The notes under the pieces were generated by a model that saw only the letters and a program-made list of their open reading frames with translations, made no database searches and had not been told where the DNA came from. 64,000 nucleotides of DNA from Candidatus Marinacidobacterales bacterium (lineage in GTDB: Bacteria; Acidobacteriota; Vicinamibacteria; Marinacidobacterales; SMYC01), in assembly GCA_965224085.1 (NCBI GenBank), contig CBDCYI010000004.1, forward strand, positions 1,760,001 to 1,824,000, given 5' to 3'. Both the position numbers and the translations under genes were made by a program. This document shows positions 6,883-49,481 of this stretch, piece by piece. How positions within the stretch are numbered: position 1 is the first letter of the stretch; each line of letters starts with the position of its first letter.

Positions 6883-8850
6883 CTACTCCGCTTCATCAGC
6901 GTATTTCTCTTTGAGTTTTTCGATCACCGTCGGGTCCGCGAGCGTCGTCGTATCGCCGAGCGCTTTGCCTTCCGCGATATCGCGCAAAAGCCGCCGCATG
7001 ATCTTGCCGGATCGGGTTTTTGGTAGATCCGCGGTCAGAATGATGTCGTCGGGACGGGCGATGGCCCCGATGCGTTTGACCACGTGCTGTTTCAAATCAT
7101 CCAAGAGGGACGGCGGCGCCGGCCGCCCTTCCTTGAGGGTGACGAAAGCTGCAATCGCCTGGCCCTTGATGTCGTGCGCCCTTCCTACGACCGCGGCTTC
7201 GGCAACATCCGGATAGTCGACGAGCGCGCTTTCGACCTCCATCGTCCCGATTCGATGGCCAGAGACGTTCAAAACGTCGTCGATGCGCCCGAGAATCCAA
7301 AAATAGCCATCGGCATCGCGCTTGGCGCCGTCTCCTGGAAAATAGACCTCGTTCGACCACTTGCTCCAGTAGGTCGAAACGTAGCGCTCCGGATCACCGT
7401 AAATGCCACGGAGCATAGAAGGCCAAGGACCTTTGATGGCGAGAAACCCGCCGCCGACCTCGACCGTGCTCCCCGTGCCCGTTACGATATCCAGCTGGAT
7501 CCCGGGGAACGGCTTCGTCGCCGAGCCCGGCTTGGTATCCGTTACTCCCGGAAGCGGCGTACACATGATCGCGCCGGTCTCGGTCTGCCACCACGTATCC
7601 ACGACGGGACAACGCTCGCCGCCGATGTGCTCGTGGTACCACATCCACGCTTCCGGATTGATGGGCTCGCCCACCGTTCCGAGGAGTCTCAGAGACGACA
7701 AGTCGTGTTTCTCCGGCCACTCCGTGCCCCACTTCATGAAAGCGCGGATGGCCGTGGGCGCCGTATAGAAACACGTCACCCCATATTCCTCGACGATCGA
7801 CCAGAAGCGGTCTTTGTCAGGCCAGTCGGGCGAGCCTTCGTACATCACACCGGTGACGCCGAGAGCGAGTGGCCCATAGACGATATAGCTGTGGCCCGTC
7901 ACCCAGCCGATATCGGCCGCGGCCCACCAAACGTCATCGTCTTTGAGATCGAAGACATATTTAGTCGTGGCCGCGACCTGCGTCAGATAGCCCCCCGTCG
8001 TATGGACGATGCCCTTGGGTTTTCCCGTCGTGCCAGAGGTGTAGAGGATGTAGAGCATGTCCTCCGCATCCATCGGCTCGGGCTCGCAATAGTTGTCGAC
8101 GTCGTCCACGAGAACGTGCCACCAGTGATCGCGTCCCTCTTCGAAGCGGATGTGAAAATCGCCGCGTTTGACGACGACGACGTGCTCGACACTCGGCGCA
8201 CCTTCGACCGCCTCGTCGGCCAATTTCTTCAACGGAACGATGTTTCCGCGGCGGTACCCGCCATTTGCAGTTATCACGAGCTTGGCTTCGGCATCGTTGA
8301 TGCGATCTCGAAGCGAGTCCGCGCTGAAGCCACCGAAAACGACACTATGCACGGCGCCAACACGGGTGCAAGCCAGCATCGCGATCGGAAGCTCGGGGAT
8401 CATCGGAAGATAGATCGCGACCCTATCGCCCTTGCGTACGCCCAGTTTCTTCAGCACATTGGCGAACCGATTGACCTCGCGGTAGAGATCCCAATAGGTG
8501 AGCGTGCGTCGGTCGCCAGGCTCACCCTCCCAGATGAGCGCAGCTTTGTTGCGGCGGGCGGTCGCGACATGACGGTCGATACAGTTGGCGCTCACGTTTA
8601 TCTTTCCGCCAACGAACCACTTCGCGTGAGGAGGATTCCAGGAGAGCACCTCGCTAAAGGGCTCCATCCACTCGAGCTCACCCGCCATCCGGGCCCAGAA
8701 AGCCTCGGAATCCTTGTCCGCTTCGTCGTAGAGCGACACGTCACTCACGTGAGCCTTTTCCCGAAAGGCCTCGGACGGAGAGAACTTCCTACCCTCTTGA
8801 AGCAGAGCGTCAATCTCAATCTCCGCGCTTGCATCCTCGCCGTCACTCAT
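6883..8850 (-). CDS. acs: Acetyl-CoA synthetase
   Basis: [31 protein letters not shown]. The start was trimmed to MSDGEDAS, which follows a GGAGG-like RBS; the ORF-track N-terminal extension is antisense to the rhomboid gene. Confidence 0.95.
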
Positions 8851-8952
8851 CACAAACCCTCCTTCCACGAAACTCCCATCCGAGATTCTACGACATGTCC
8901 TCCTGTCGGTATACTGGATGTAGTCCCACGAAACCGAGACAGGTGGCCGAAG

Positions 8953-10332
8953 ATGCTGATCCCGCTGACGCATGAGCGCATGACGGTACAACGTCTGCCT
9001 TGGGTCACGATCGGCATCATCGCGATGAACTTCGTCGTCTTTGTTTCTACTTGGCCCACCGCCAAGCAAGACGACGCCCGACGCACCGAAGCCTGGGACG
9101 AGCTCGTCGCCTATGCCGAAGCCCATCCGGGCGTTTGGGAGGACGACTGCGTGCGCTGTCCGGGGCGCGCCGATTTCGACGCCTTGAGCGAGCATTTGCA
9201 GGATGTCGCCTCCGCGCACATTTTTTCTCGATACGGCTACGTCCCGGGAAAGCCTACCCTCCGTGGCCTGTTCGGCTCGATTTTTCTTCACGCAGGCTGG
9301 TCGCACTTGTTGTGGAACATGTACTTTCTGTGGCTCTACGGCTGCAGCATCGAAGATCTTTGGGGGCGCCCACTCTACGCGGTCGTCTATCTCACGGGCG
9401 GCGTGGCCGCCGCGCTCGCCCAAGGCGCCTATGAGCCCAACGCGCTCGGCCCACTCGTAGGCACCTCGGGAGCGATCTCAGCGCTCACTGGTGTCTTCCT
9501 CATACGCTGCTGGGACACGCGCATCCGATTCTTCTGGATGTTCATTATTTTCTTCGGAACGTTTCACGCACCCGCCTGGATCATGTTGGGTTTTTGGATG
9601 ATGAAAGAGCTGTTCAACGCGTTTGTCTATGCGGGCGTCTCGTCGGTGGCATTCTGGGCTCACATTGGCGGCTTCCTGTTCGGCGCCATCGTCGCCTCCG
9701 TTCTCAAGTTGACGCGCGTCGAAGAGAACATCCTTGCACCGGCGCTCGATCGCAAGACCAATCTACTCGGACGCCAGGCGGAGGCTGCCCGCGCGGTCGA
9801 GCTCATGGAGGACGGTGATTATTCGACGGCTACGCGCGCGCTCAAATCGGCCATCCAACAAGCACCACAGGACAGCGATAGCTACCGGCTGCTCGCGCAG
9901 TGCTATCAAGCGCGCGGCCGTCCGCAAGAAGCGACGCGTTGGCTCCGTCAGGAGCTGAAGCTCCACGCCCAAGCGCGGGACGACGTCCTCGTGGCCGAGA
10001 CCTATCAAGAGCTAGTCAATACGGCGCCTGAGCTGTCACTGACGCCGAGAGAACTTTGGAGCGTGGCGACCTCTCTCATGGCGACCGGGAATGAAGGCCT
10101 CGGCGTCCCTCTCTATCATCAGCTGCTCGAGGGCGCGCCGGAACCCATGACGCGCCTGCGAGCCGGTCTCGCACTCGTCGAGCATTATCAGGCCGAGTCG
10201 GACCCGGTACGCGGGCTCGAGATTCTGGACCGCGTCCAGGAGTTCGCCGCGCCGCACGACGAATGGCGCGCGTTCGTCGAGAACAAGCGCACCGCGCTCC
10301 GCGACGCCGCGCCGGCCTTCCTGAGACGGTAG
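8953..10332 (+). CDS. Rhomboid family intramembrane serine protease with C-terminal TPR region
   Basis: [29 protein letters not shown], catalytic GTSG and AHIGG, then helical TPR-like repeats. Divergent from acs. Confidence 0.88.
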
Positions 10333-17848: not shown

Positions 17849-19033
17849 ATGCCTTCGGTGACGGCCCCCGGGCTCGACAAGCTCACGAGGGCATGCGCCA
17901 AAGAGCTCGCTCAGGGCGCACCTTCCGACTATTTTGTGCGCTCCGAGGTCGAGCGGCTCTCCCCCCTCCTTTATTACGGGTTCGACCGTCTCGGATGGCC
18001 CGACACCGTCCCAGAGGATGAACGTCACCACTTCCGCAAAGCTTACTACGCGAGCGCGGGCCGAAACGTCGAATTGTTGGACGCTCTCGGTAACGCAGCC
18101 GAGGCCCTCTCGGCACGGGATATCCAGACGATCGCAGTGAAAGGCGCGGAGCTCGCGACCAACGTTTATCCGAGCGTCGCACTCCGCCCGATGAGCGATA
18201 TCGACCTCTGTGTGTCGCCCGAGCAGGGCGAAGCTGCGGAGGCTACATTGACGGAGCTCGGATACCGCCCCTATGCGCCGGAAATGACTCCGGGGCTCGC
18301 GCGGAAGACACGGCACGCAAAGTTGTTCATCGGTGGTGCTCGGGACAACATCGCCATCGATCTGCATTGGTCGTTAGTCGGCGGTCTCGGCGACACTCGC
18401 GCACCCCATTACGATTGGCTTCGCGACAATACCGTGAGAAGCGACGCGCCCTACGAGCGGCTTTCGGAGACGGCGCATCTCGCTTATCTGGCCGCACACA
18501 TGAAGCTTCAGCACTACGACGAAGAGATTCCACTCCTGTGGCTCGTCGATTTCACGCTTCTCGCTTCTTCGTCCTCGATGGAGTGGGAGGTGCTCTTCGC
18601 CGATGCGCGCGCTCTTGGGTGGAGCGACGCGCTGGCCGCAACGGCCCGCGATGTGCAACGACGCCTGGGTGCCGATTTGCCCGAGCCGCTCGTGCGGTTC
18701 ACTGACAGCTGGCCGCTGCTGCCGCAGATAGCGGAACTTCATCGGCGGGACGGCCGCGACGAGCCCGAGCGCGTTTGGAACGAGCTCACCACGCTACCCT
18801 GGCACGCACGTTGGGCGCTCCTCTGCGCTCTCGTTCTACCGTCGTTGAGCTACATGCGCTTCCGCTATCCCTCGCTGCCTAGTTGGGCATGGCCGCTCGC
18901 TTATCCGCTTCGATGGGCCCGATTCGTAGCTAAATCTGCAGCGCTCGCTAAGAGGTATGTAGGCCGCGTTGTGCACCGGGAAACACGAACGAAACCGCTT
19001 CTCGCGTCCCCGGATCGCCGCAAAAGCTGGTAG
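17849..19033 (+). CDS. Nucleotidyltransferase family protein (NTP_transf_5-like)
   Basis: VKGAELA..YP....RPMSDIDL and IDLHWSL; this type is commonly found with PqqD/lasso-type cassettes. Confidence 0.85.
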   Translation: MPSVTAPGLDKLTRACAKELAQGAPSDYFVRSEVERLSPLLYYGFDRLGWPDTVPEDERHHFRKAYYASAGRNVELLDALGNAAEALSARDIQTIAVKGAELATNVYPSVALRPMSDIDLCVSPEQGEAAEATLTELGYRPYAPEMTPGLARKTRHAKLFIGGARDNIAIDLHWSLVGGLGDTRAPHYDWLRDNTVRSDAPYERLSETAHLAYLAAHMKLQHYDEEIPLLWLVDFTLLASSSSMEWEVLFADARALGWSDALAATARDVQRRLGADLPEPLVRFTDSWPLLPQIAELHRRDGRDEPERVWNELTTLPWHARWALLCALVLPSLSYMRFRYPSLPSWAWPLAYPLRWARFVAKSAALAKRYVGRVVHRETRTKPLLASPDRRKSW

Positions 19034-19068
19034 AATCTAGGCATACACTAATACATAGGTACAAATGC

Positions 19069-20011
19069 GTGGCTGTGAATTTCGCTGCCTGTAAAACTAC
19101 GCCTTTCGGCGCTCGCTATCTGAAAAACCCAGCCATGTTTCCCCTTGGTTTGGACGGAGAATCGTGGGGAAGCCGCGAGCTATCGCTCGGGGTCTTGGAC
19201 AAGCGGTTTCTCGTATGCGGGCTCAGCGCGGCTCAGGAACATACGATCCGAAGCTTGTGGCCCCGCTTCGTCATCGACGATCCGGACCGCGCGGACGTGG
19301 CGCTGTTCGTGCACCGCGCACCGACGTCCATCTTTATCAAGTTCGACCGCTGGGAGTACACCCTCGATTTCGATTACACGACGAAGTCGCTCTCGATGGC
19401 GGGATTGGATCTCATGGGGCGACTCGAGCTCGTGCCCGAGCTGCGCGCCGCACTTTGGGTGGCAACGGAAGAACACGATCTGTTTCACAGCGCTTTCGAG
19501 AACTTCTTGCGAATCCTCGTCGCCTACGCGGCGCTCGATCTCGGAGGCGGGTTGTTTCACAGTGCTGCCGTCGTGGAGGGCTACTCGGCTTGGCTATTCG
19601 TCGGCCATTCCGGCGCAGGCAAGTCCACCGTCTCCCAACTGGCGCTCGACTCCGGTCGCGCTGTTTTGAGCGATGATTTGAACCCGGTCCTGCCGAATCC
19701 ACGCGGCGGCCTCGACCGTCGTCGGGAGCCCTTTTCTCGGCGACGAAGGCGCCCGCGCGCCGACGCGCCACGCGTTGAACGCCATCTACCGGCTGGAGCA
19801 AGGCGCAAGAGACGGCGTAAGAACGATGGGCGAAGCCGAGACGCTCGCTTCACTCATGGCATCCTCGCCCTATCTCAACCGCGATCCTCACCGGACCGAA
19901 ACGCTGTGCAAAAACCTAGCGACCCTCGCGGGGCGTGTCCCGCAGCGCGTTTTGACTTTTCGGCGCGATGGAACGATCTGGCCCCTCCTCGAACGGAACG
20001 GGGCAAAATAA
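19069..20011 (+). CDS. HPr-kinase-like P-loop protein (ScmC-like), frameshifted near 19700
   Basis: LFHSAAVV, FVGHSGAGKST, LSDD. The GSPFLG and LTFRRDGTIW segment is in the shifted frame (ORF 19775-20011). Confidence 0.75.
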
Positions 20012-20065
20012 TTTGAAGTCAGATATTTAGATCAACGTTTTCTTGCAGTTAAAGGAGCAACTCTG

Positions 20066-20353
20066 ATGATCGACAGGTCGCTTGTTCTCAAGCGTAGGGA
20101 TGACGTTCGGTACCGGATCGTCGGTGATGAGGCGGTTGTGATTCGGCAAAGTGCGGCTGAGGTTCTAGCTCTCAATGACGTGGGGGCGCGGGTGCTCGAG
20201 CTCATCGATGCGGGAGAGACGATGGGCGCTTTGATCGACACGATGGTCGAGGAATACGATGTCGGGCGGGAAGATCTCGCTCGTGACGTCGTGGGGTTCG
20301 TCCAATCGATCCGCGAGGCGGGCATCGTCGAAGGCGTCTCGAACCCGTCGTGA
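20066..20353 (+). CDS. PqqD family RiPP recognition element (peptide chaperone)
   Basis: 95 aa: R.VGDEAVVI, LNDVGARVLELID, EYDVGREDLARDV..FV..I.EAGIV. Confidence 0.9.
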   Translation: MIDRSLVLKRRDDVRYRIVGDEAVVIRQSAAEVLALNDVGARVLELIDAGETMGALIDTMVEEYDVGREDLARDVVGFVQSIREAGIVEGVSNPS

Positions 20354-21459
20354 GCTACGAGGCAACCGTCGTCCGAGCGTGGCAGGATTTTCATCTGTTT
20401 TCAGCTCTGCTCGAGCTCACTTATCGATGTAACCTCGACTGTTCGTTCTGCTATAACGACCTGGAGCTCGAAGGCGAGCCGCTTCGATTTTCCCAATACG
20501 AGCTTTTGCTCGAGGAGCTTCGCGAGCTCGGCTGTTTGCATCTAGGCCTTTCCGGCGGGGAGCCGTTGGCTCATCCTGATTTTTTTGCGATCGGCAAAAG
20601 AGCTCGCGAGCTCGGCTTCGTGACGCGTATCAAGTCGAATGGCCACGCGCTCGGCGGCGAGATTTTGCGCCGCGTAGAGCGCGAAGTCGATCCCTTCGTC
20701 GTCGAGATAAGTCTTCACGGAGCTATCGCGAGAACCCACGATCGCCAGACGCGCGTCAGCGGGAGCTTCGATCGCCTGATATCGAACCTGGCCGAGATGC
20801 GCGAGCGTCACTTGCGTGTCAAGCTCAAATGCGCGTTGACCCGGTGGAACGAGAGCGAGATCGAAGAGATGTTTGCGATCGCCGACAGATTCGAGATGCC
20901 GCTCGTGATCGACCCAGAGGTCACACCCCGCGACAATGGAGACCTCGAACCGTTGCAGCTCACCGCGTCGCCCGAAGGCTTGAAGCATCTCGTCGCGGTG
21001 CAGTCACGACGTGCGCTCGCGGCGCGCGCCGAGATCGCACGCGAAGGAGAGGCCGACGCCCCGGACTCAGACAGGCATTGTGGGGCTGGAACGGCAGGCA
21101 TCGCCGTGGACCCCTACGGAAACGTCTATCCCTGCGTCCAATGGCGGCGTCCGATTGGAAACGTTCACCAGAGCCGCCTCGCCGATATCTGGAGTGACAA
21201 CGCGCGACTCGATGAAATCCGGCATTTGACGGTCGAAGCGAAGTCGATGCTCGGTGATAGGGAGGAGGCGCCGTTGCTCGCTTTTTGTCCTGGTATCGCG
21301 GAAAGTCTGACCGGCGATCCTCTCGTCGTGCCCGAAGCGGCCTCGAAACGGGCGGCAATACTCGCGGAAGCGGTTCTCCCTCTACATCCATCTAGCCGTC
21401 TCAGAACGTCTCTCGCTGTCCCTCCCGATCCCACCGTTTCGATAAAATCAACTACATAG
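20350..21459 (+). CDS. Radical SAM enzyme with SPASM/twitch domain
   Basis: ELTYRCNLDCSFCY (CxxxCxxC), SGGEPL, CGAG...VDPYGNVYPC, later FCPG. Overlaps the PqqD stop (GTGA coupling). Confidence 0.9.
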   Translation: MSYEATVVRAWQDFHLFSALLELTYRCNLDCSFCYNDLELEGEPLRFSQYELLLEELRELGCLHLGLSGGEPLAHPDFFAIGKRARELGFVTRIKSNGHALGGEILRRVEREVDPFVVEISLHGAIARTHDRQTRVSGSFDRLISNLAEMRERHLRVKLKCALTRWNESEIEEMFAIADRFEMPLVIDPEVTPRDNGDLEPLQLTASPEGLKHLVAVQSRRALAARAEIAREGEADAPDSDRHCGAGTAGIAVDPYGNVYPCVQWRRPIGNVHQSRLADIWSDNARLDEIRHLTVEAKSMLGDREEAPLLAFCPGIAESLTGDPLVVPEAASKRAAILAEAVLPLHPSSRLRTSLAVPPDPTVSIKSTT

Positions 21460-21499
21460 AGATATCGCCGTTCGCGAGCCGCAGCCTCGCAAGAAGAGG

Positions 21500-21685
21500 T
21501 CATGCTCTGTCCGGCGACCGGAGCTTCTCCAGGAATCTGCCCATGTGAGGGTGGCTACGGTCGAGTGGGACTGCGTCCTTGTGAAACCATCGTACGCTCC
21601 GAAACTCGGATTCATCGAACACTAGGTTCTGCCTACGGTCACCCTTCATGACGTACCAGAGGCTCACACCGGTATGACCCGCCAA
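21500..21685 (-). pseudogene. C-terminal fragment of a NUDIX-type hydrolase
   Basis: GHTGVSLWYVMKGDRRQNLVFDESEFRSVRWF..VPLDRSHPHMGRFLEKL; the N-terminal part is absent. Confidence 0.5.
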
Positions 21686-22020
21686 CAGATATCTGCTACG
21701 ATGAGCCACTTTTGCCCGCCCGAAACTCGGCTTCGAAGGAGCATGTGGGCGCAATTCGAGCGTGACGTTGAGCGAGGTGCTCCGACGAGGCCGGGTCGTC
21801 ACGTGGTTTTCCGGATATTCACGAGGAATCGAAGCTACAGGTTTCGTGCGTGGTGGTGCAGCCGACGCGAAGGATGACGACGAGCCGACCTTTCTTGCAC
21901 TCAGGGCGGACGTCGGATTCGGTATCGGTGCCTACGGAGTATGGGGCTGAGGGGAGCGTTCTATACTCGCGGAGTGGTGCTTCCTCTACATCCGGTACAG
22001 CGCAGCTGATGATTAGGCCC

Positions 22021-22200
22021 TTACGATCTCTGGGCGAGGGGACAGGTGCCTACCGTGGCTTTGGCGGGAGGCGACGGGGTGCACAACGCGGCCATGGCTT
22101 CGAGGGGTTCGCGGTAGAGTATCTCGGGACGGCGGTAGGCCTTTTTCTTGGCCGTCCCGTTCCCCCGCTCCTTCTTGTTGCGACTGTTGTCTTGCTTCAT
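22021..22200 (-). CDS. Candidate RiPP precursor peptide, 59 aa
   Basis: Hand translation: MKQDNSRNKKERGNGTAKKKAYRRPEILYREPLEAMAALCTPSPPAKATVGTCPLAQRS*. AGGTGG RBS 4 nt upstream, YxxP leader motif, two Cys in the core; about 560 bp from the rSAM gene. Confidence 0.8.
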   Translation of the reverse strand: MKQDNSRNKKERGNGTAKKKAYRRPEILYREPLEAMAALCTPSPPAKATVGTCPLAQRS

Positions 22201-22257
22201 GGATCCACCTGTTTTTCTAGTTTGATAACACGCTCTTTCCGGACATCGTCAGGACAG

Positions 22258-23422
22258 TCAGTGGGCTAGCATCATGAAGAAGTTCACCATTAGCCGATTC
22301 TTCTCGAAGAGGACGACGTTCGAGCGGCGTTCCAGATACTCCGTAGTGACGCCGACGTCCAACCCCCGGCGTATCCTACAAGTGAGCGAGAGACGATAAG
22401 TGATGTGCTCGTCCATGATTCGCCTATGGAGCTGCCACCGAAAAGAGCCGCCGAAGCGTTGCTCGATGAAGTAGGAGTTCTTCACTGAGAACGGACGTCA
22501 CCGCGTCGCGGGAATAGATTCCCGCCAGCCGATGCCCCCCACTCGCAACGTACGTGACGTCCACGGAACCGATGAGGCCCGCATATTCGACACGGTTCGC
22601 ATCCACGGGGATGAGTCGGCGAAAACCGAGAAGAAGTTGCCCGGAGAGGCCTGCGGAAGGGCTCAAGGGTACGATGGAGCCCGACGACAATGTGGGAGAA
22701 AAATCAAAGCCGGCACGCATCCCGTAAGAATCACTATCCCGGGTCGGGTCGTCGATATCGAGCTTCTCGTAGAAGATGTCGGCGAGGGCGTTCGTTTTGG
22801 CGCTCACCCGGCGTGAGAGATTCATGGATACGGAGTCTCGGACGAAGTTGAGACGATCGAGGATGGTGCTGTCGTCGTTCGGTGTCTGGATGATCCTCGA
22901 TCGCGTTTGCTCGTAGCGTGCGCTGAGTTGGTGACGCCATCCGAGTGCTAGAGTCATCGCCGCGTCGAACTGGTTGGTGCGCATCTCGACAGGAAAGTCG
23001 AACTCCGTGCTGGGCCGGCGGATGTCGTCCCGAAACTCGTTGTTGATTTGAAGTAGATAGCGGCGCCCACCCCAGCCTCCGCCGAGACGGGTGATGTCGA
23101 AGATGCGGCGCAGGTCGGCGTTGTTCTTGTAGTAAACGAAGTCGACTTCTTGGAACATATCGAGAAACGCATTCGAGCCCATGGGCACAGCGAGCCGTAT
23201 CCCGGGTCCGAGTAGCGCGGCGATGTCGGACTGCGCCGCCGGCGTCGACAGAGCATTCGAGTCGTATCCACCGGAGAATCGAATGCTCGGGGTGGCGTAG
23301 AAAGGACCGAGCTCGAAGAATCCGCTTCGCACGTCAGTAAGGCGCTCTTCGATGAGGTCCACGGATTGGGCGGCGGCCGGAGCGGCGACGAGCAGCGCTA
23401 AGAGCGTGAGACGAAAGCTCCA
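22258..23422 (-). CDS. Exopolysaccharide-associated outer-membrane beta-barrel protein, frameshifted near 22485
   Basis: Signal peptide (LLALLVAAPAAA-QS), GYDSN motif and amphipathic beta strands. The C-terminus lies in ORF 22258-22485. Confidence 0.65.
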
Positions 23423-23424
23423 CA

Positions 23425-24597
23425 TCACGCGGCGCCCAGAATGCGACCCACGGTCGTATTTTGAAATACCGCGTCAATCAAACCGCGGTGCCAGTCGAAA
23501 TTCGCCTTCTCCCGAATCAAGCTCGCGAGCCCTTCGCGCCGGGCTAGAGACATGAGCCGCTCGATGCCCCAGTCGCTCATGAGCTTGAAGCTCCGCCGGA
23601 GCTTGAGCCCAGTCTCGATCTCATCCTGCAGAAGATCCCGCCACCGCTTCTCGTACGCGCCGAGGGTCGAGCTGTCGAGACGATCTCGCTCGAGCCCAAA
23701 GGCGATAACGTCGGCCGCGATTTCTCCCGTCAGCATGCCGTAGTAAATGCCGCCGCAAGTCGTCGTCTTGATATGGCCGGCCGCCTCGCCGACGACGACG
23801 ACCCGATCCGCATAGCTCTTCGACAAGAATCCAAGAGGAAGGACACTCGTGCGGGTCTCGCCGGCCAGCCCGTTGATGTCGATGCGCTCCGCAATGTCGG
23901 GCCGCGACAAGAAACGCTTGAGCACGCGAGGTCCGTCGCGGCGACACAGAAGGCCGACTTTCGATCGTTGCCGTCCCAAGGGCACGATCCACGCGAAACC
24001 CTCCGGTGCCCATTTGTGGCCCAAATAGACTTCCACGTGCGATGCAGGAAGCTCCAGCTCGGTTTGGACACCCAAGAGCTTGGCAGGAATGTCGTCGAAG
24101 CCGAGCTTGCTCAGAAGCGGCATGCCGGCTCCCGTCGCCACGACCACCACGCGGCACCTCAGAGCCTGTGGCTCCAAGCCCGCGCCTACGGACACGGTCA
24201 CAGCGACGCCTCCAAATACGTTGCGGATGTCGGTGACTCGATGCCCCAACAAAACGGTCGCTCCAGCTTCGCATGCCACGACGCCGAGCTCCGCATCGAA
24301 CTCGCTCCGATCGACGACGTGGGCGAGCGGGGTGTCGGTTCGAAACTCCCAGCGCACGCCTCTCGGTGAGACGAACTCCACGCTGTCAAGGCTGTGGCGT
24401 ACGAGACGCGACGACAGATCGAAACGTCCGAACGCTTCCAAGCCGATAATGCCGCTGCAGTTGACGGGGCGTCCAATCTGGACGTGCTCTTCGAGAACGC
24501 CGACATGGAATCCGGCGCGCGCTAGGCTCGCGGCGGCCGTCAACCCGGCCGGCCCCGCGCCGACGATGAGCACATCAAATTCATCTTTAGCGGTCAG
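23425..24597 (-). CDS. Geranylgeranyl-reductase family FAD-dependent oxidoreductase
   Basis: DVLIVGAGPAG, IGRPVNCSG, VDRSEFD, FAWIVP, VGEAAGHIKTTTCGGIYYG. Start uncertain. Confidence 0.85.
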   Translation of the reverse strand: MTAKDEFDVLIVGAGPAGLTAAASLARAGFHVGVLEEHVQIGRPVNCSGIIGLEAFGRFDLSSRLVRHSLDSVEFVSPRGVRWEFRTDTPLAHVVDRSEFDAELGVVACEAGATVLLGHRVTDIRNVFGGVAVTVSVGAGLEPQALRCRVVVVATGAGMPLLSKLGFDDIPAKLLGVQTELELPASHVEVYLGHKWAPEGFAWIVPLGRQRSKVGLLCRRDGPRVLKRFLSRPDIAERIDINGLAGETRTSVLPLGFLSKSYADRVVVVGEAAGHIKTTTCGGIYYGMLTGEIAADVIAFGLERDRLDSSTLGAYEKRWRDLLQDEIETGLKLRRSFKLMSDWGIERLMSLARREGLASLIREKANFDWHRGLIDAVFQNTTVGRILGAA

Positions 24598-29408: not shown

Positions 29409-31271
29409 GTGAGTCAATTTTTTTTGTGGCTGCCGTTTTCGCCTGGGCAGCAGGTACGACGGACCATCTCCGAGATGGGACGCGCAAGCCGCTCGCAGCC
29501 AGACGAGCTCGAAGACCATTGCCAGCTGCCGGACCTCGGCGTCGGAACGCTCGAGCGGGACAGCGCACCGTCAGCACAGCCCGCGACGCTCGCCGGACAC
29601 CATTTATGGTTCTTCGGCGAAGCCTATGACGGCCATGGGCTCGGCAACGTTGAGGCGGTTGAGGCGGTCGAGGCCTTCGACTTCCGGCGAAAGCTCCTCG
29701 AGCTCGTCCTCGATCAAGGACCCGACGTCTTGCGAGCGCTGGATGGCGCGTATGTCGTCGCCCTTTGGCGAGCAGAGAGCACAACGCTCAGAGTCGTGAA
29801 CGATCGTTACGGCACCCTCCCTCTCTACTGGTCCAACAACGGCGACGGCTTCGCCATGGCCAGCACCGTCCGAGCCATATTGATGGCCCCGGGAGTCGAG
29901 CCTATGCCGGACATCCAGGCGCTTCGTGAAGCCGTGACTTTCGGAGGCTACCGCCTCGGAGAGCGTACCAACGTCGAAAACGTGAAAATGCTTTACGGAG
30001 GGACCGAGCTCTCTGTGCGCGGCAACACGGTCACAAAGAAGCGCTACTGGAGCTATGCGGCGATCGAAGAACGCGACTCTGGACTCGACGTCGACGTGCT
30101 GATCGAGCAAGCAAGCGAGCTCTGGACCCGAGCGATCAGGCGTCGCTTGCCGCGAAACGGGCGATCGGGGCAGACCTTGAGCGGCGGCCTCGATAGCCGC
30201 GCCATCCTCGCCGAAGCGGCGCCTTCGTGTCCTGAATGGGTCGCGGTGAGCTACGGCCTTCCGAATAGCGATGACGTCCAGATCGCGAAACGCGCTGCCG
30301 AAGCTTCCGGCGTAGCGTGGGTCTACCACGATCCTTATATGCGCGAGCCGCACTGGCTCGAATCCCGCACGAGCTTCGTTCAACAGACGGACGGGCTCAT
30401 CGACCTGACGGATCTGATGCACGTCGCTTCCGTCCACGCACAGGCCCAACAACTCGACGTGCATTTCAGCGGTTATATCGGAGACGCCGTGTGCGGCCCC
30501 ACCTTCACCGATGTCGAAAACGCTTTGGACCTCAAGAGCGCCCTTCCCTTTTACGGGACGCGTCTCGGGATGGACGATGTCGACGCCGAGCGCCGGATCG
30601 AGGAGATCGTCGCAGGACTTTCCGGCGCTCCGCCTCGTTTCGCGCTCTTCGAGCACAAGATCCCACAATCGACGAATCGATGGGTCGACGCGTGGCGGCC
30701 ATGGCTCGCGGTACGGCGGCCGTTTCTCGATTACGACCTATTCGATTTCTGGCAAGGCTTGCCGGTCACGCTTCGCCGTGAAGGTCGCCTATACGAACGC
30801 TGGCTGACGCACCGCTTTCCGGAGCTCTTCCGAACGATCCCGAACCAGAAAGACATGGTCCCCGTTCTCAGCTCACCACTGCGTCGCCAGATCGTTCGAA
30901 GCGTTCGCTTTGCGACACGCAAAGTGCTCGGAGTGGTGAATCTGAAGACACGCTCGCGCAGCTATCACGATGAGCACGGGCACTGGTCCCAGCCAAAGAA
31001 TCGGAGCCGGATCTAAGAAGCGATTCTTCGCCCGGAATCGGTGTCTTGCGACGTCTTCGGGCGCAACACCGTCCGAGCGTTTCTCACACATTGGTTCGAG
31101 ACGAGCTTGAACCCTACCCAAGTGATCGGTGCCTTATACGTCTTCGAGACCTATCATCGCGACCTCGCGAGTCATCTTGGAGAAAGTGCGCAGAAACAGC
31201 ACGAACAAGCTCCGATCACGATGCTCGAGACAGCGCCGCCAAGAACCGCTCGCGAAAACGGGCCGCCGTAA
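29409..31271 (+). CDS. Asparagine-synthase-related amidotransferase-like protein; in-frame TAA at 31014-31016
   Basis: NDRYGTLPLY, LSGGLDSR, SGYIGD, PFLDYDL. No N-terminal Cys. The frame continues after the stop (ORF 31041-31271). Confidence 0.78.
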
Positions 31272-35865: not shown

Positions 35866-37779
35866 GCCCCCACCATCCGCCAGGCTACCGGACGAATCTC
35901 TTGAGCCGGCAGATCTTCACGAGACGATGCGCCGATGGCCTGGAGCCGTTCGAGCCATGTGCTATAGGCTATGAGCGCCCACGGACGCGACCAGTGCACA
36001 CGCCCACGCGAGAGCGCGTCCCAGAGCCGGTCCACCGCTTGGCTCTCGAAAATTCCTGGCGCGAGCGCCCGCTCGCTGAGCTCCTCGCGGTGGTCGACGA
36101 GCCAGCTTTGAAAAGGGAGGGTGAAGCCTTGTTTCGGCCGGTCCCATACTTCCCGCGGAAGGGGCACATCGAGAGCACGCATCAAGAGCGGTTTGTTGAC
36201 ACGGCGTGAAAACTTGACGTGATGCGGCAGTCGAAATACGGCCTCCACGAGCGCGTGGTCCAGGAATGGCACGCGCGCTTCGAGTGAGTGCGTCATGCTC
36301 ATGACATCCGTATCGCGAAGAAGTTGATGTGGCAGGTAGATCCCGAACTCGAGCCGCATGGCGCTTCGGAGAAGATCGTCGCCCTCGAGCGTTGACGGTA
36401 GATCTCCCCGTATCTCGTACGGCTCGCTTCCAGGGACGAGCTCTAAGATTTGCCCCGGACTGAACAGACCACGAAAAAGAAGATAGAGATTGCGCGCGTT
36501 CACGCTCGCGAGATATTCGAGCTTGCCACCCGAGTGCCCCGCCATCGACGCGCTCACCAAAGGAAGCGAGGTGCCTTCGCGCAAAACGCGGAGAACGCTC
36601 GAGCCATCGGACGAACGGGGCGAGAGCGCGCAACTTTCGGAAGTGGGGATAGCCGAGAAACACTTCGTCGCCGCCGACGCCGCTAAGCACGACGGTGAGG
36701 CCGGCCTGGCGGGCGGCGTGTGAGACGAAAAAGCTGTTCACGCCGTCGACGGTGGGTGAATCCATCGCTCTAAACACATCCGGCAGTGCGCCGAGGAAAT
36801 CCTGGCCGTCGAGACGTATCTCTCGATGGTCGGTGCCGTATCTTTGCGCGACGACACGGGCATAGCGAGCTTCATTCAGCCCCGGCTCGTCGAAAACAAC
36901 GGAAAGGGTCGTGACCTTGGAGCTCGAGAACTTCGCCGCGAGTGCGATGAGCGTGGCGGAATCCATACCGCCGCTCGAGAAGACGCCGAGAGGGACGTCG
37001 CTGACGAGCCGCATACGGACGGACTCCGCGAGGAGCTCTCGCACGTGCTCGATGTCATCGTCTCGCGCATCGTTAATGGCTGCGGGAGCAGGCAGGCTCC
37101 AGTAGCGATGGACGCTCCGCGAACCCTTGCACACCTCCATATAGTGCGCGGGCTCGAGCATGAACACGCCTTCTACAGCGGTTCCCGGTCCGGGGACGGA
37201 ACCAAGAGCCAGAAAAGACGTGAGCGCCGCCTCGGCAGGCTTCGCAGGAACGAGCCCGCTCGCGACGATCGCCGATAGCTCCGAGGCAAATACGAGCCGG
37301 TCTTCCCCTTCGGCATAGTAAAGCGGTTTGATCCCTAGGCGATCCCGCACGAGATAGAGCTTCCGTTCGTGCAGCGGGCGAGCGTCGTAGAGAGCGAAAG
37401 CGAACATGCCACAGAGTCGCGGCAAAAGTCCTTGGAGGCCCCAGGACTCGTAGCCGTGAATAAGGACTTCGAAATCCGAATTCGAGCGAAAACGGTGTCC
37501 AGAAGCGCGTAGCTCCGCACGAAGCGCCTCGAAGTTGTAAATCTCCCCATTGAAGCTAACCCAGACATCACCCGTTTCATTCGGCATCGGCTGCCGCGCG
37601 GAGGCGGTGAGGTCGATCACGGCGAGCCGGGCGTGACCCAATAGCACGCTAGAAGTGCTGAAGGCGCCTTCGTCATCGGGGCCGCGATGGGCTTCGGCGC
37701 GCAACATCCGCGCGAGCGCCAAACGATCCATTGCGTCGATCCGCCCACTTCGACGAACGACACCGCCAATGCCACACAT
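35862..37779 (-). pseudogene. asnB: Asparagine synthase (glutamine-hydrolysing), polysaccharide amidotransferase type; frameshift or deletion near 36570
   Basis: MCGIGG, HRGPDD, FNGEIYN, RDRLGIKPLYY, SGGMDS, LSGVGGDE. LLRDTDVMSM.HSLEARVPFLD is in another frame. Confidence 0.85.
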
Positions 37780-48121: not shown

Positions 48122-49481
48122 GGTTCTGTTACATAATAATATTTACAAATACGAGTTCGGTAAGAATTAATACCCTCAATCAAGCACGTCGGGGATGGAG
48201 AGTGTAATTCCAGTTGCCGTGGAAGGGGTGGATTTTGAGTCGAAGCTCCTGCATTTCTTCGTTACTGACCTTCTGGCCTGTCTCGTAGGAGTTCTTGTCC
48301 AGCATGGCCTTTACCTTCAAGCCGGTTCGGGTCTTGGTGTTGCCGATAAGATTGACGACCGCCTCGTAGCTCACGAGAGGCCGTCCTTTCCAGTTCATGC
48401 TGACAAAGGAGAATAGTCGATGTTCGATTTTGTTCCATTTACTGGTTCCCGGTGGATAGTGGCATACGGTGATGGGAATCTTCAGTTGGTCCGATAGCTT
48501 TTGGAGGTGGAGCTTCCAGCCTCGCAGCCGGTTTCCGTTGCTTCCACCGGCGTCCGCGCAAACAAGCAGACGTTTCGCCATCGGATAAGACTTTTTTCCG
48601 AGTATGCGCCACCATCTCCGGATGCTTTCTACCTCGAATTCCGCAGTCTCGTGAGTAATGCCGACGTTGACCAGCGCTTCGTCGCGGGACACATCGTAAG
48701 TCCCATAGGGAATTGCTTTGCCCTCAGCCATACTGGGGAAGTCGTGTACAAGAACCGGCTCACCTCCGCCCTTCTTCTTCCTCCACGTTTTACCCCTGTT
48801 TTCAAAGGCTCCTATCAATTCCTTCTTCTTGGTATCGACGCTCACGACCGGATCCTTGCTTCGCATGAACTTGCTTACTTGCTTGTTGATGTAACGAAAC
48901 TGTTTGTCCCGATCCGGGTGCTGATCCCCTTCCAGTCTCTTCACGTTAGCTTGCAGCGAGTAACCCATTTCTCCTAGGCGTCGAGCAACTGTCACGTGCG
49001 AGACATCGTGACCTTTGCGTTCAAGCTCCTCCGCCATCGCTCTCGTGGACTTGTTCGTCCATTTGAGATGCTTCATCGGGTCGCCGGCGGTTCTTTCGTC
49101 GAGGATCTTCTTCAGCTGCCGCTCGATTCTCGGGTCTAACTCCTCGACCCGCTTTCTCCCCCCGCCAGGCTTGCGCACTCGGGCGCTGTCGTCATCAACT
49201 ATCGGCGCTTTCGCTTTGAGTTCCGCCACGCCCTTCATGATGGTCGGCCGCGACATCCCCGTAAGTCGTGACAGCCGACTGACCCCGCCGCGTCCTTCTT
49301 CAAGCGCCCGTTGAGCCACAAAAACACGCGCTTGCGCTTCGTTCAACGTCCCCAGCACCCTCAACCAGTGACGCTCAGACTCTGGTACCTTTCGATCTGT
49401 TGCCATCCTCGTATAGTCTCGCAACCAGCAGAGGATAGCAGCAATGACAGTGTATTGTAAATATTAATATGTAACATGCCC
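48122..49481 (-). mobile_element. ISAzo13-family insertion sequence, apparently complete
   Basis: Imperfect terminal IRs GGTTCTGTTACATAATAATATTTACAA and GGGCATGTTACATATTAATATTTACAA (reverse complement), with TTA flanking both ends as a 3-bp target duplication. Confidence 0.88.
48180..49406 (-). CDS. ISAzo13-family DDE transposase
   Basis: GGGRK, LKWTNKS, GYSLQAN, VSVDTKKKELIG, ADAGGSN, PPGTSKWNKIEHRLF. Confidence 0.93.
   Translation of the reverse strand: MATDRKVPESERHWLRVLGTLNEAQARVFVAQRALEEGRGGVSRLSRLTGMSRPTIMKGVAELKAKAPIVDDDSARVRKPGGGRKRVEELDPRIERQLKKILDERTAGDPMKHLKWTNKSTRAMAEELERKGHDVSHVTVARRLGEMGYSLQANVKRLEGDQHPDRDKQFRYINKQVSKFMRSKDPVVSVDTKKKELIGAFENRGKTWRKKKGGGEPVLVHDFPSMAEGKAIPYGTYDVSRDEALVNVGITHETAEFEVESIRRWWRILGKKSYPMAKRLLVCADAGGSNGNRLRGWKLHLQKLSDQLKIPITVCHYPPGTSKWNKIEHRLFSFVSMNWKGRPLVSYEAVVNLIGNTKTRTGLKVKAMLDKNSYETGQKVSNEEMQELRLKIHPFHGNWNYTLHPRRA

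Follow-up and report, generated by a model that had tools for sequence, protein, structure and literature searches.

The closest published system to the locus described here is that of the linear polyphosphorylated peptides (LPP; LppA/K/B/S/D/N) of Bacillota, reported by Popov et al. 2026, Nat Commun (PMC13381572). According to the main text of that paper, LPP clusters lie in capsular polysaccharide loci, and their core gene set codes for an SpI-like peptidase, a discrete recognition element (RRE) for peptides made on ribosomes and modified after translation (RiPPs), an HprK-like kinase, an NTP transferase and also an exporter resembling MsbA. The leader motif is YxxPxVLxHQxIxFET|xxS, and two steps are reported there as shown experimentally: cleavage after T-1 by the SpI-like peptidase and polyphosphorylation of Ser+3 by the HprK-like kinase. 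The review PMC8498205 describes kinase-type lasso clusters, in which the linear precursor receives a phosphate on its C-terminal Ser from an HprK homologue; in the case of pseudomycoidin, a hexose is then attached to this phosphate by a nucleotidyltransferase. The subject of this work is a gene for a 59 amino acid peptide, and the genes around it, in a stretch of 64,000 nt (the window) from a Candidatus Marinacidobacterales bacterium of the Acidobacteriota (assembly GCA_965224085.1, contig CBDCYI010000004.1, positions 1,760,001 to 1,824,000). The locus is one partly decayed member of a widespread, uncharacterised cassette found in polysaccharide gene clusters, and the peptide is most likely the precursor on which the enzymes of this cassette act. 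Its logic is that of LPP and kinase-type lasso clusters (RRE, HprK kinase and NTP transferase), with a radical SAM enzyme in addition.

The resemblance to LPP has several parts. Both systems lie inside polysaccharide biosynthesis loci, and the window contains an RRE, a kinase (frameshifted) and an NTP_transf_5 gene. The spacing of the leader is also shared, YxxPx[V/I]Lx..x[I/L]x..x(-1)|xx(+3), with matched hydrophobic positions. On the other hand, LPP are described in Bacillota and our locus belongs to Acidobacteriota. A radical SAM gene is present here, while such an enzyme is not mentioned in the main text of the LPP paper (PMC13381572, supplements apart). LPP cores, as described there, are long and variable and have their phosphosite at Ser+3; here the core has about 22 amino acids, with two Cys, one Lys, a terminal Ser, and Cys at +3. 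No SpI-like peptidase was found in this genome, and no MsbA-like exporter was seen among the scanned open reading frames (ORFs) of the window.

Two features are shared with lasso peptides: a YxxP leader (Y22 and P25 are invariant) together with a discrete PqqD/B1 protein, and a C-terminal Ser together with an HprK homologue and an NTP_transf-type enzyme, as described for the clusters of paeninodin (PadeK) and pseudomycoidin (PsmK/PsmN). Unlike in kinase-tailored lasso peptides, there is no macrolactam, no Asp/Glu in the core and no Thr at -2, and a radical SAM enzyme is present instead. Lasso cores begin with Gly, Ala, Ser or Cys and have Asp or Glu at position 7-9 for the macrolactam; counted from Cys40, position 8 of our peptide is an invariant Lys, not Asp/Glu. 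No match to PF13471 (B2) over the cut-off was found in the whole genome, the best one having 21.6 bits against a cut-off of 26. The window contains two Asn_synthase genes (29409-31016 and 35962-37779), and the first has no counterpart in any of 20 related loci. A lasso precursor was rejected on these grounds: the core lacks an acidic residue, no protein of the genome reaches the B2 cut-off and no syntenic cyclase was found. A first-pass annotation of the window, made by a model from the sequence, had also stated that the core does not suit a lasso ring, and the lack of an acidic acceptor, of a Transglut_core3/B2 protein over the cut-off and of synteny for the Asn-synthase genes agrees with it.

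A third system, the SynChlorMet cassette of NCBIfam (Scm; ScmC TIGR04249, ScmE/F TIGR04250/04251), also combines an HprK-fold protein, PqqD and radical SAM/SPASM enzymes. Our locus has one radical SAM gene rather than two, and none of the scores comes near its cut-off: intact kinase orthologs match ScmC best among the NCBIfam models, with 30.9-33.5 bits (cut-off 125), and ScmE/F scores are 61-78 bits (cut-off 400). No paper under the name "SynChlorMet" was found in a literature search, and searches joining HprK/HPr kinase, radical SAM, RiPP, Acidobacteriota and exopolysaccharide gave nothing relevant. The first-pass annotation knew of no characterised product of this type; our searches agree with it, LPP being the closest published relative.

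The peptide gene and its association with the putative modification genes

The peptide gene is found beside the same genes in many related loci. We have compared 20 genome loci from species-representative genomes, which are Acidobacteriota metagenome-assembled genomes (MAGs) with the label Holophagales or Thermoanaerobaculia and a single MAG of the Myxococcales. A radical SAM ortholog lies beside the peptide in 19 of them: 18 show the convergent arrangement, and in one (L040) the ortholog shares the strand of the peptide and lies upstream of it; it was not found in the remaining locus (L036). PqqD and the kinase are each present in 16 of the 20 loci, several of which are on contigs that stop early. 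From the stop codon of the peptide gene to that of the radical SAM gene, the distance is typically between -4 and about 225 nt. We have also fetched 80 metagenome loci with a 28-row alignment of the peptide, and the counts are restricted to loci with enough flanking sequence. When at least 1 kb is available downstream (52 loci), a convergent radical SAM gene is found within 1 kb in 41 cases, another arrangement in three and none in eight. Of the 23 loci that extend at least 2.5 kb past the peptide, 20 have PqqD; the kinase is found in 17 of 19 extending at least 3.5 kb, and an SpI-like peptidase in 15 of 17 extending at least 5 kb.

Peptide and radical SAM enzyme also tend to occur in the same genomes. 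For this comparison we have used the genome of the window (G000) and 40 relatives, with thresholds of E<=1e-5 for the peptide and E<=1e-40 for the radical SAM ortholog; these 41 genomes are kin and not independent, so the counts are given without a statistical test. Both genes are found in 10 genomes, the peptide only in one, the radical SAM gene only in one and neither in 29: they appear together in 10 of the 12 relatives having either. In the peptide-only genome (G001), the contig stops 95 nt past the peptide, inside the radical SAM gene. In the other one (G003), just the last 45 nt or so of the peptide gene are left beside the radical SAM gene. In a wider sample of the phylum, with 301 genomes from 186 genera, the peptide is found in 36 genomes and 26 genera (E<=1e-4); one of the 36 is an unpublished genome (G192), without which the count is 35 of 300. 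As a side observation, the G003 locus (L042, G003:C1:6160000-6178000, 10176-10278), from the same genus as the window, keeps the operon from Wzz to the radical SAM gene, with a radical SAM enzyme 91% identical to ours, and its homology to the window ends at the peptide remnant. Its NTP_transf_5 gene is split over two frames, and its kinase is apparently in a single frame.

The peptide ORF is a genuine gene under purifying selection, as indicated by its homologues, its third-position substitution bias and its conservation. The first-pass annotation had proposed it with a ribosome binding site, and we have obtained an identical translation; AGGTGGATCC also precedes the start codon in two relatives (L022 and L045). 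A word-indexed protein search gave 39 homologues of 57-69 amino acids (E<=2e-12). A profile made from them, run against 1.84 billion proteins, gave 374 representatives of clusters at 50% identity (E<=1e-3). Pairwise comparison of 17 distinct orthologous stretches of 39 codons gives 928/659/2435 differences at the three codon positions, and 1807 synonymous against 1102 non-synonymous codon differences. The GC content at third codon positions is 0.78, similar to that of the flanking genes; in an overlapping antisense ORF (21850-22269) it is flat by codon position (0.60/0.60/0.59). No paralog was found in the same genome, no Pfam or NCBIfam family was matched by any of the 39 homologues even at E<=5, and a search of the ESM Atlas gave unnamed clusters only. 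A scan of 21300-22700 gave no promoter-like site and one terminator-like site, which is within the expectation for shuffled sequences.

The family has a sharp signature: [Y/W]xxP-x7-[LIMV]E-A-x-A | x-x-C ...K... C-x4-6-Ser-COOH. We have counted it in the 150 best representatives, mutually at most 50% identical, of which 149 match [YW]xxP-x7-[LIMV]E. Among these 149, position -1 is Ala in 147 and position +3 is Cys in 148, in place of the T and Ser described for the LPP leader. At position -3, Ala is found in 105 and mostly another small residue in the rest. Exactly two Cys are found in 147, and a Lys lies between them in the same number. There are 5-7 residues after the last Cys in 145; 142 of the peptides end in Ser and three in Thr. 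In the close homologue set, the first 18 residues or so vary freely, K20, Y22, P25, I27, Y29, R30, E31, L33, E34, A37, A38, C40, P44, P45, K47, G51 and C53 are invariant, and every homologue ends in Ser. The core is as the first-pass annotation described it: it has C40-x12-C53 and five Ser/Thr, ends in Ser and contains no Asp/Glu, E34 being the last acidic residue of the peptide. When the leader is laid on the LPP motif, the spacing is identical (Y22, P25, I27, L28, L33, A37 as -1 and C40 as +3). AxA is a classical signal-peptidase-type site. This alignment and the A35-M-A37 site place the boundary between leader and core probably before A38, the leader ending at A37.

Two unusual members of the family should be mentioned. 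In one relative (L010/L038), the peptide ORF's C-terminal part, ...PSPSGEDQPGQCAPRGRSSRS, leaves the family pattern after the first Cys, which looks like a MAG frameshift. In P0096 (714 amino acids), residues 667-713 form a representative of the peptide family at the C-terminal end, either a fusion or a miscalled ORF.

A structural model of PqqD with the peptide, the kind of check proposed in the first-pass annotation, is graded as "weak support". The inputs were a 14-row alignment for PqqD and a 39-row alignment for the peptide. The interface score ipSAE is 0.53 (0.56, 0.53 and 0.53 in separate runs), against 0.00 for the best control; similar RRE-leader complexes have already been solved, so the score may reflect structures known to the predictor. 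Between runs, at least 91% of the contacts are the same, with a partner pLDDT (predicted local distance difference test) of at least 53. The mark is reached by 58 of 80 solved complexes and two of 110 mismatched pairs; among those that reach it, only seven solved complexes, and both mismatched pairs, do so with a score of 0.60 or below.

Taken with the synteny and the phyletic co-occurrence, the conservation of Y22, P25, C40, K47, C53 and the terminal Ser and the PqqD co-fold support the proposal of the first-pass annotation, a precursor with a YxxP leader for PqqD and the radical SAM enzyme; homologues do recur beside these genes, with YxxP and both Cys conserved. We are fairly confident that the peptide is the precursor substrate of the radical SAM, PqqD and kinase cassette.

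Several points weigh against it. With the queries used here, the radical SAM gene was undetected in eight of the 52 metagenome loci with enough flank; one of the eight (L045) is explained by a foreign island inserted exactly at the 3' end of this gene. The peptide gene is on the strand opposite to its proposed maturases and co-directional with exopolysaccharide (EPS), porin or C25 protease genes, to which operon logic alone would assign it. What is proposed for the crosslink type, the phosphosite and the point of cleavage rests on analogy throughout, and the C-terminal Ser is only one candidate phosphosite, because the residue corresponding to the LPP phosphosite Ser+3 is Cys here. Finally, this copy may be non-functional: four genes are frameshifted in this genome (kinase, porin, glycosyltransferase and carbamoyltransferase), the 3' end of the radical SAM gene is rearranged and the SpI-like peptidase was not found.

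State of the cassette in this genome

The features of the locus are listed in Table 1. The neighbours named by the first-pass annotation, NTP_transf_5, a broken kinase, PqqD and the radical SAM enzyme, are present as it described them. Its statement that PqqD and the radical SAM gene are adjacent to the peptide gene is right as to the locus and has to be qualified as to the arrangement: they are on the opposite strand, the genes converge, and the radical SAM stop codon is 561 nt away.

Table 1. Position of the main features in the window (peptide residues where indicated).
Feature	Position	Strand	Evidence or remarks
NTP_transf_5 nucleotidyltransferase, intact	17849-19033	+	PF14907, 156 bits
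HprK-like P-loop kinase, ScmC-like, frameshifted	19069-20016	+	GHSGAGKST
Discrete PqqD-type RRE	20066-20353	+	PF05402, 53.9 bits
Radical SAM enzyme with partial SPASM (twitch-like) domain	20350-21459	+	
Insertion of 572 nt between the radical SAM 3' end and the peptide gene	21391..21962	unstranded	Direct repeats of ~33 nt at 21358-21390 and 21963-21995 (GGATGTAGAGG...CCGCGAGTAT)
Precursor peptide gene, 59 amino acids, ATG start	22021..22200	-	ORF and translation, homologues, codon pattern
Variable N-terminus of the peptide	residues 1-18		
Leader, K19-A37	residues 19-37		Y22xxP25 and A35-M-A37
Predicted core, A38-S59	residues 38-59		ALCTPSPPAKATVGTCPLAQRS
Shine-Dalgarno-like AGGTGGA, 3 nt before the ATG of the peptide gene	22204..22210	-	
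Porin gene (BBP2_2 beta-barrel), immediately upstream of the peptide gene, same strand	22258..23428	-	Single gene in relatives, split here by a frameshift near 22481

The gap of 561 nt is due to the 572 nt insertion, which is unique in the genome and absent from a relative of the same genus, where the stop codons of the two genes are 3 nt apart. As a result of the insertion, the last 22 codons of the radical SAM gene are read from inserted DNA. In L045 (3470-8457), AT-rich DNA of foreign origin begins at the same ...CCGCGAGTAT point, and it codes for a DNA methylase, a MutH-like endonuclease and a protein like HK97-gp10. From these sequences, the 3' end of the radical SAM gene looks like an integration hot spot.

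Single-base frameshifts with respect to related genomes are found in four genes within 10 kb of the EPS locus: the kinase (about 19716), the porin (about 22481), a glycosyltransferase (about 25745) and a carbamoyltransferase (about 28185). In the kinase, an extra C has been inserted near 19716, and the true last 95 residues of the protein are read in frame +2 (19718-20002). Contigs from three studies, one of which may be the source of this assembly, are identical over 19000-23500, with no differences or gaps, and this region covers the kinase and porin shifts. An assembly slip as their cause has been dropped, since both shifts are the same in all these contigs: the frameshift of the kinase gene seems genuine. 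This strain may therefore have lost phosphorylation, and the pathway may be incomplete here.

These data raise the alternative that the cassette is a decaying relic in this genome, with an intact peptide gene and a mature product which is no longer made. Besides the two shared frameshifts, it is favoured by the shifts in two further EPS genes, by the insertion in the radical SAM 3' end and by the situation within the genus, where G003 keeps only the end of the peptide gene and neither peptide nor radical SAM enzyme was found in G002 and G004. However, the peptide retains every invariant residue, and the frames of PqqD, of the radical SAM enzyme (up to residue 347) and of NTP_transf_5 are open. 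A split kinase might also keep some activity, and the library type of the sequencing runs is not on record, so that they might share a systematic error. On the whole, we see a relic as possible but rather doubtful.

Radical SAM enzyme, proposed pathway and chemistry

Fifteen full-length orthologs of the radical SAM enzyme have six Cys in common: C27/C31/C34 (CX3CX2C), C244-x17-C262 and C313. The canonical SPASM motif has seven Cys, while the pattern found here corresponds, by sequence, to one auxiliary-cluster motif with three Cys ligands. The nearest solved chains by sequence are PqqE (6c8v, 2e-20), BlsE, SkfB (6efn) and CteB (5wgg). By fold (model with a mean pLDDT of 72.6) they are PqqE, SuiB, SkfB, CteB and anSME, which are generic SPASM/twitch maturases, and the matches do not discriminate between chemistries. 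Our enzyme shares with SkfB, CteB and PqqE the fold, the radical SAM core and an RRE-dependent peptide substrate, and with SkfB a single auxiliary cluster domain; it differs from them in that identity is only 16-22%, the RRE is a separate protein and the substrate family is unrelated. All scores for curated families are far below the cut-offs: PqqE 84.7 (381), MftC 89.1 (265), StsB 76.5 (625) and PapB 46 (340), and for PqqD the lasso-specific model as best match with 36.9 (70) and TIGR03859 with 34.9 (46). Membership in the PQQ or mycofactocin systems has been rejected, as PqqE, MftC and PqqD scores are below cut-offs and the peptide matches no NCBIfam model. The sequence and the model fit a RiPP maturase, without fixing a specific chemistry.

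We propose the following pathway for an intact cassette. The discrete PqqD would bind the leader through K-K-x-Y22-x-x-P25-x-I-L, as the co-fold weakly suggests, and bring it to the radical SAM enzyme. The latter would crosslink the core, with its two Cys and one Lys, most likely through Cys-derived thioether bonds, as enzymes of the SkfB/CteB type do. The HprK-like kinase would then phosphorylate the near-invariant C-terminal Ser, as do the paeninodin-type lasso kinases, and NTP_transf_5 may add a sugar or a nucleotide to the Ser phosphate, as in pseudomycoidin. Cleavage after A35-x-A37 would free the core from its leader; the operon of relatives codes for a candidate for this step, a protein similar to archaeal-type signal peptidase. 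The cassette is embedded in an exopolysaccharide locus and probably works with it. A thioether plus a phosphorylated C-terminal Ser is the chemistry that we favour tentatively, by analogy, its chances being somewhat short of even.

The thioether part has a competitor. The peptide may be the precursor of this cassette and the radical SAM enzyme may not form thioethers: the two Cys would form a disulfide or bind a metal, and the enzyme would make a C-C or C-N crosslink with the invariant Lys47, or carry out epimerisation or PqqE-like chemistry. By sequence, the nearest solved or curated relatives are indeed PqqE and the mycofactocin maturase, not sactisynthases, and the Lys between the two Cys is conserved like the Cys (147/149). 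A second auxiliary cluster motif, present in most thioether-forming SPASM enzymes, is also missing. However, thioether enzymes of the CteB and SkfB type have an auxiliary site with three Cys ligands, and two invariant Cys beside a radical SAM enzyme with such a site correspond to their pattern. Sactipeptide and ranthipeptide systems have a radical SAM/SPASM maturase with auxiliary clusters, an RRE and a Cys-containing core with thioether crosslinks; the locus shows the radical SAM motif, one three-Cys auxiliary motif, a discrete RRE and two invariant Cys, with curated models below cut-off; since all curated-family matches are so far below their cut-offs, they favour no chemistry. We consider a non-thioether enzyme rather unlikely.

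Upstream genes and the exopolysaccharide locus

The exopolysaccharide locus extends over about 15.5-39.5 kb of the window and contains Wzz, an AAA_31 tyrosine-kinase-like gene, Bac_transf, several glycosyltransferases, the two Asn_synthase genes and Wzy_C. NTP_transf_5 is syntenic in L023, L025, L026 and L038. Several types of locus can be distinguished. In the family of the window, the peptide follows a porin gene and there is no peptidase. In other lineages, it follows a priming sugar transferase or a Peptidase_C25 protein of about 1500 amino acids, and the enzyme operon also codes for a protein which matches archaeal-type signal peptidase I below cut-off (TIGR02228, 28.7 bits). Such an SpI-like peptidase is found in eight of the 20 related genome loci. 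In 49 metagenome loci with at least 1 kb upstream, the gene 5' of the peptide is Bac_transf in 23, C25 in 18 and BBP2 in five. The C25 protein, of the gingipain/PorU type, lies directly upstream on the same strand in L033 (5395-9915) and in 12 of the 20 related loci. While the upstream gene differs among lineages, the side with the radical SAM enzyme, PqqD and kinase is constant.

This arrangement allows another explanation: the small protein would work with the genes that precede it on its own strand (for the EPS porin, a priming sugar transferase or the giant C25 protease), as an accessory or substrate of polysaccharide export, and the radical SAM gene would be close only because it shares the locus. 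The peptide gene always comes after one of these genes on the same strand, and in the window a gap of 57 nt separates it from the porin gene, with no promoter-like site between them. It is the upstream gene that varies by lineage, however, and the enzyme side that is constant; the leader bears an RRE-binding YxxP motif with LPP spacing; peptide and radical SAM ortholog occur in the same genomes; and in three loci (L040, L079 and L094) the peptide is co-directional with the radical SAM operon. We regard this explanation as very improbable. That of a chance ORF with no product, suggested by the short length of 59 amino acids and by the lack of a Pfam or NCBIfam match, is effectively refuted by hundreds of homologues of conserved length, third-position bias, invariant residues and conserved synteny, and its probability is practically negligible.

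Keeping the reading of the peptide as a precursor of the cassette, one may speculate about its product. Rather than a free peptide of the antibiotic kind, it might be a peptide-glycan conjugate, in which the C-terminal phosphoserine of the crosslinked peptide would serve as acceptor, cap or primer for a polysaccharide built or attached by NTP_transf_5 and the EPS machinery. We think this improbable, but if true, it would explain three things: why the peptide gene is always co-transcribed with the gene of an EPS porin, of a priming sugar transferase or of a giant C25 protease of the PorU/gingipain type, why the cassette is located in polysaccharide loci of Acidobacteriota, as LPP clusters are in Bacillota, and why the core shows the conservation of a cofactor and not the variability of a toxin. 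Since the cassette is constantly embedded in exopolysaccharide loci, its product may well serve in the cell envelope or the biofilm matrix of abundant soil bacteria, and not as a classical antibiotic. In practical terms, a substrate is now defined for a large and experimentally untouched peptide-modification cassette (374 clusters), with its leader motif, AxA site, Cys-Lys-Cys core and terminal Ser. The cassette is tied to LPP, described in 2026, and to lasso-peptide tailoring enzymes, and offers RiPP chemists a concrete target for co-expression.

A few minor observations may be added. In some Holophagales-type loci, a second module lies beside the cassette (L033, 13290-17842), with NTP_transf_5, an HprK_rel_A-like kinase, a lasso B2-like protein (NF033537, 66.5 bits, cut-off 33) and a 578 amino acid protein with no match in Pfam or NCBIfam. 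In the window, a gene for a rhomboid-TPR protein of 1082 amino acids is found upstream of the EPS locus (7084-10332), and an ISAZ013-type DDE transposase (PF07592, 460 bits) downstream of it (48180-49424).

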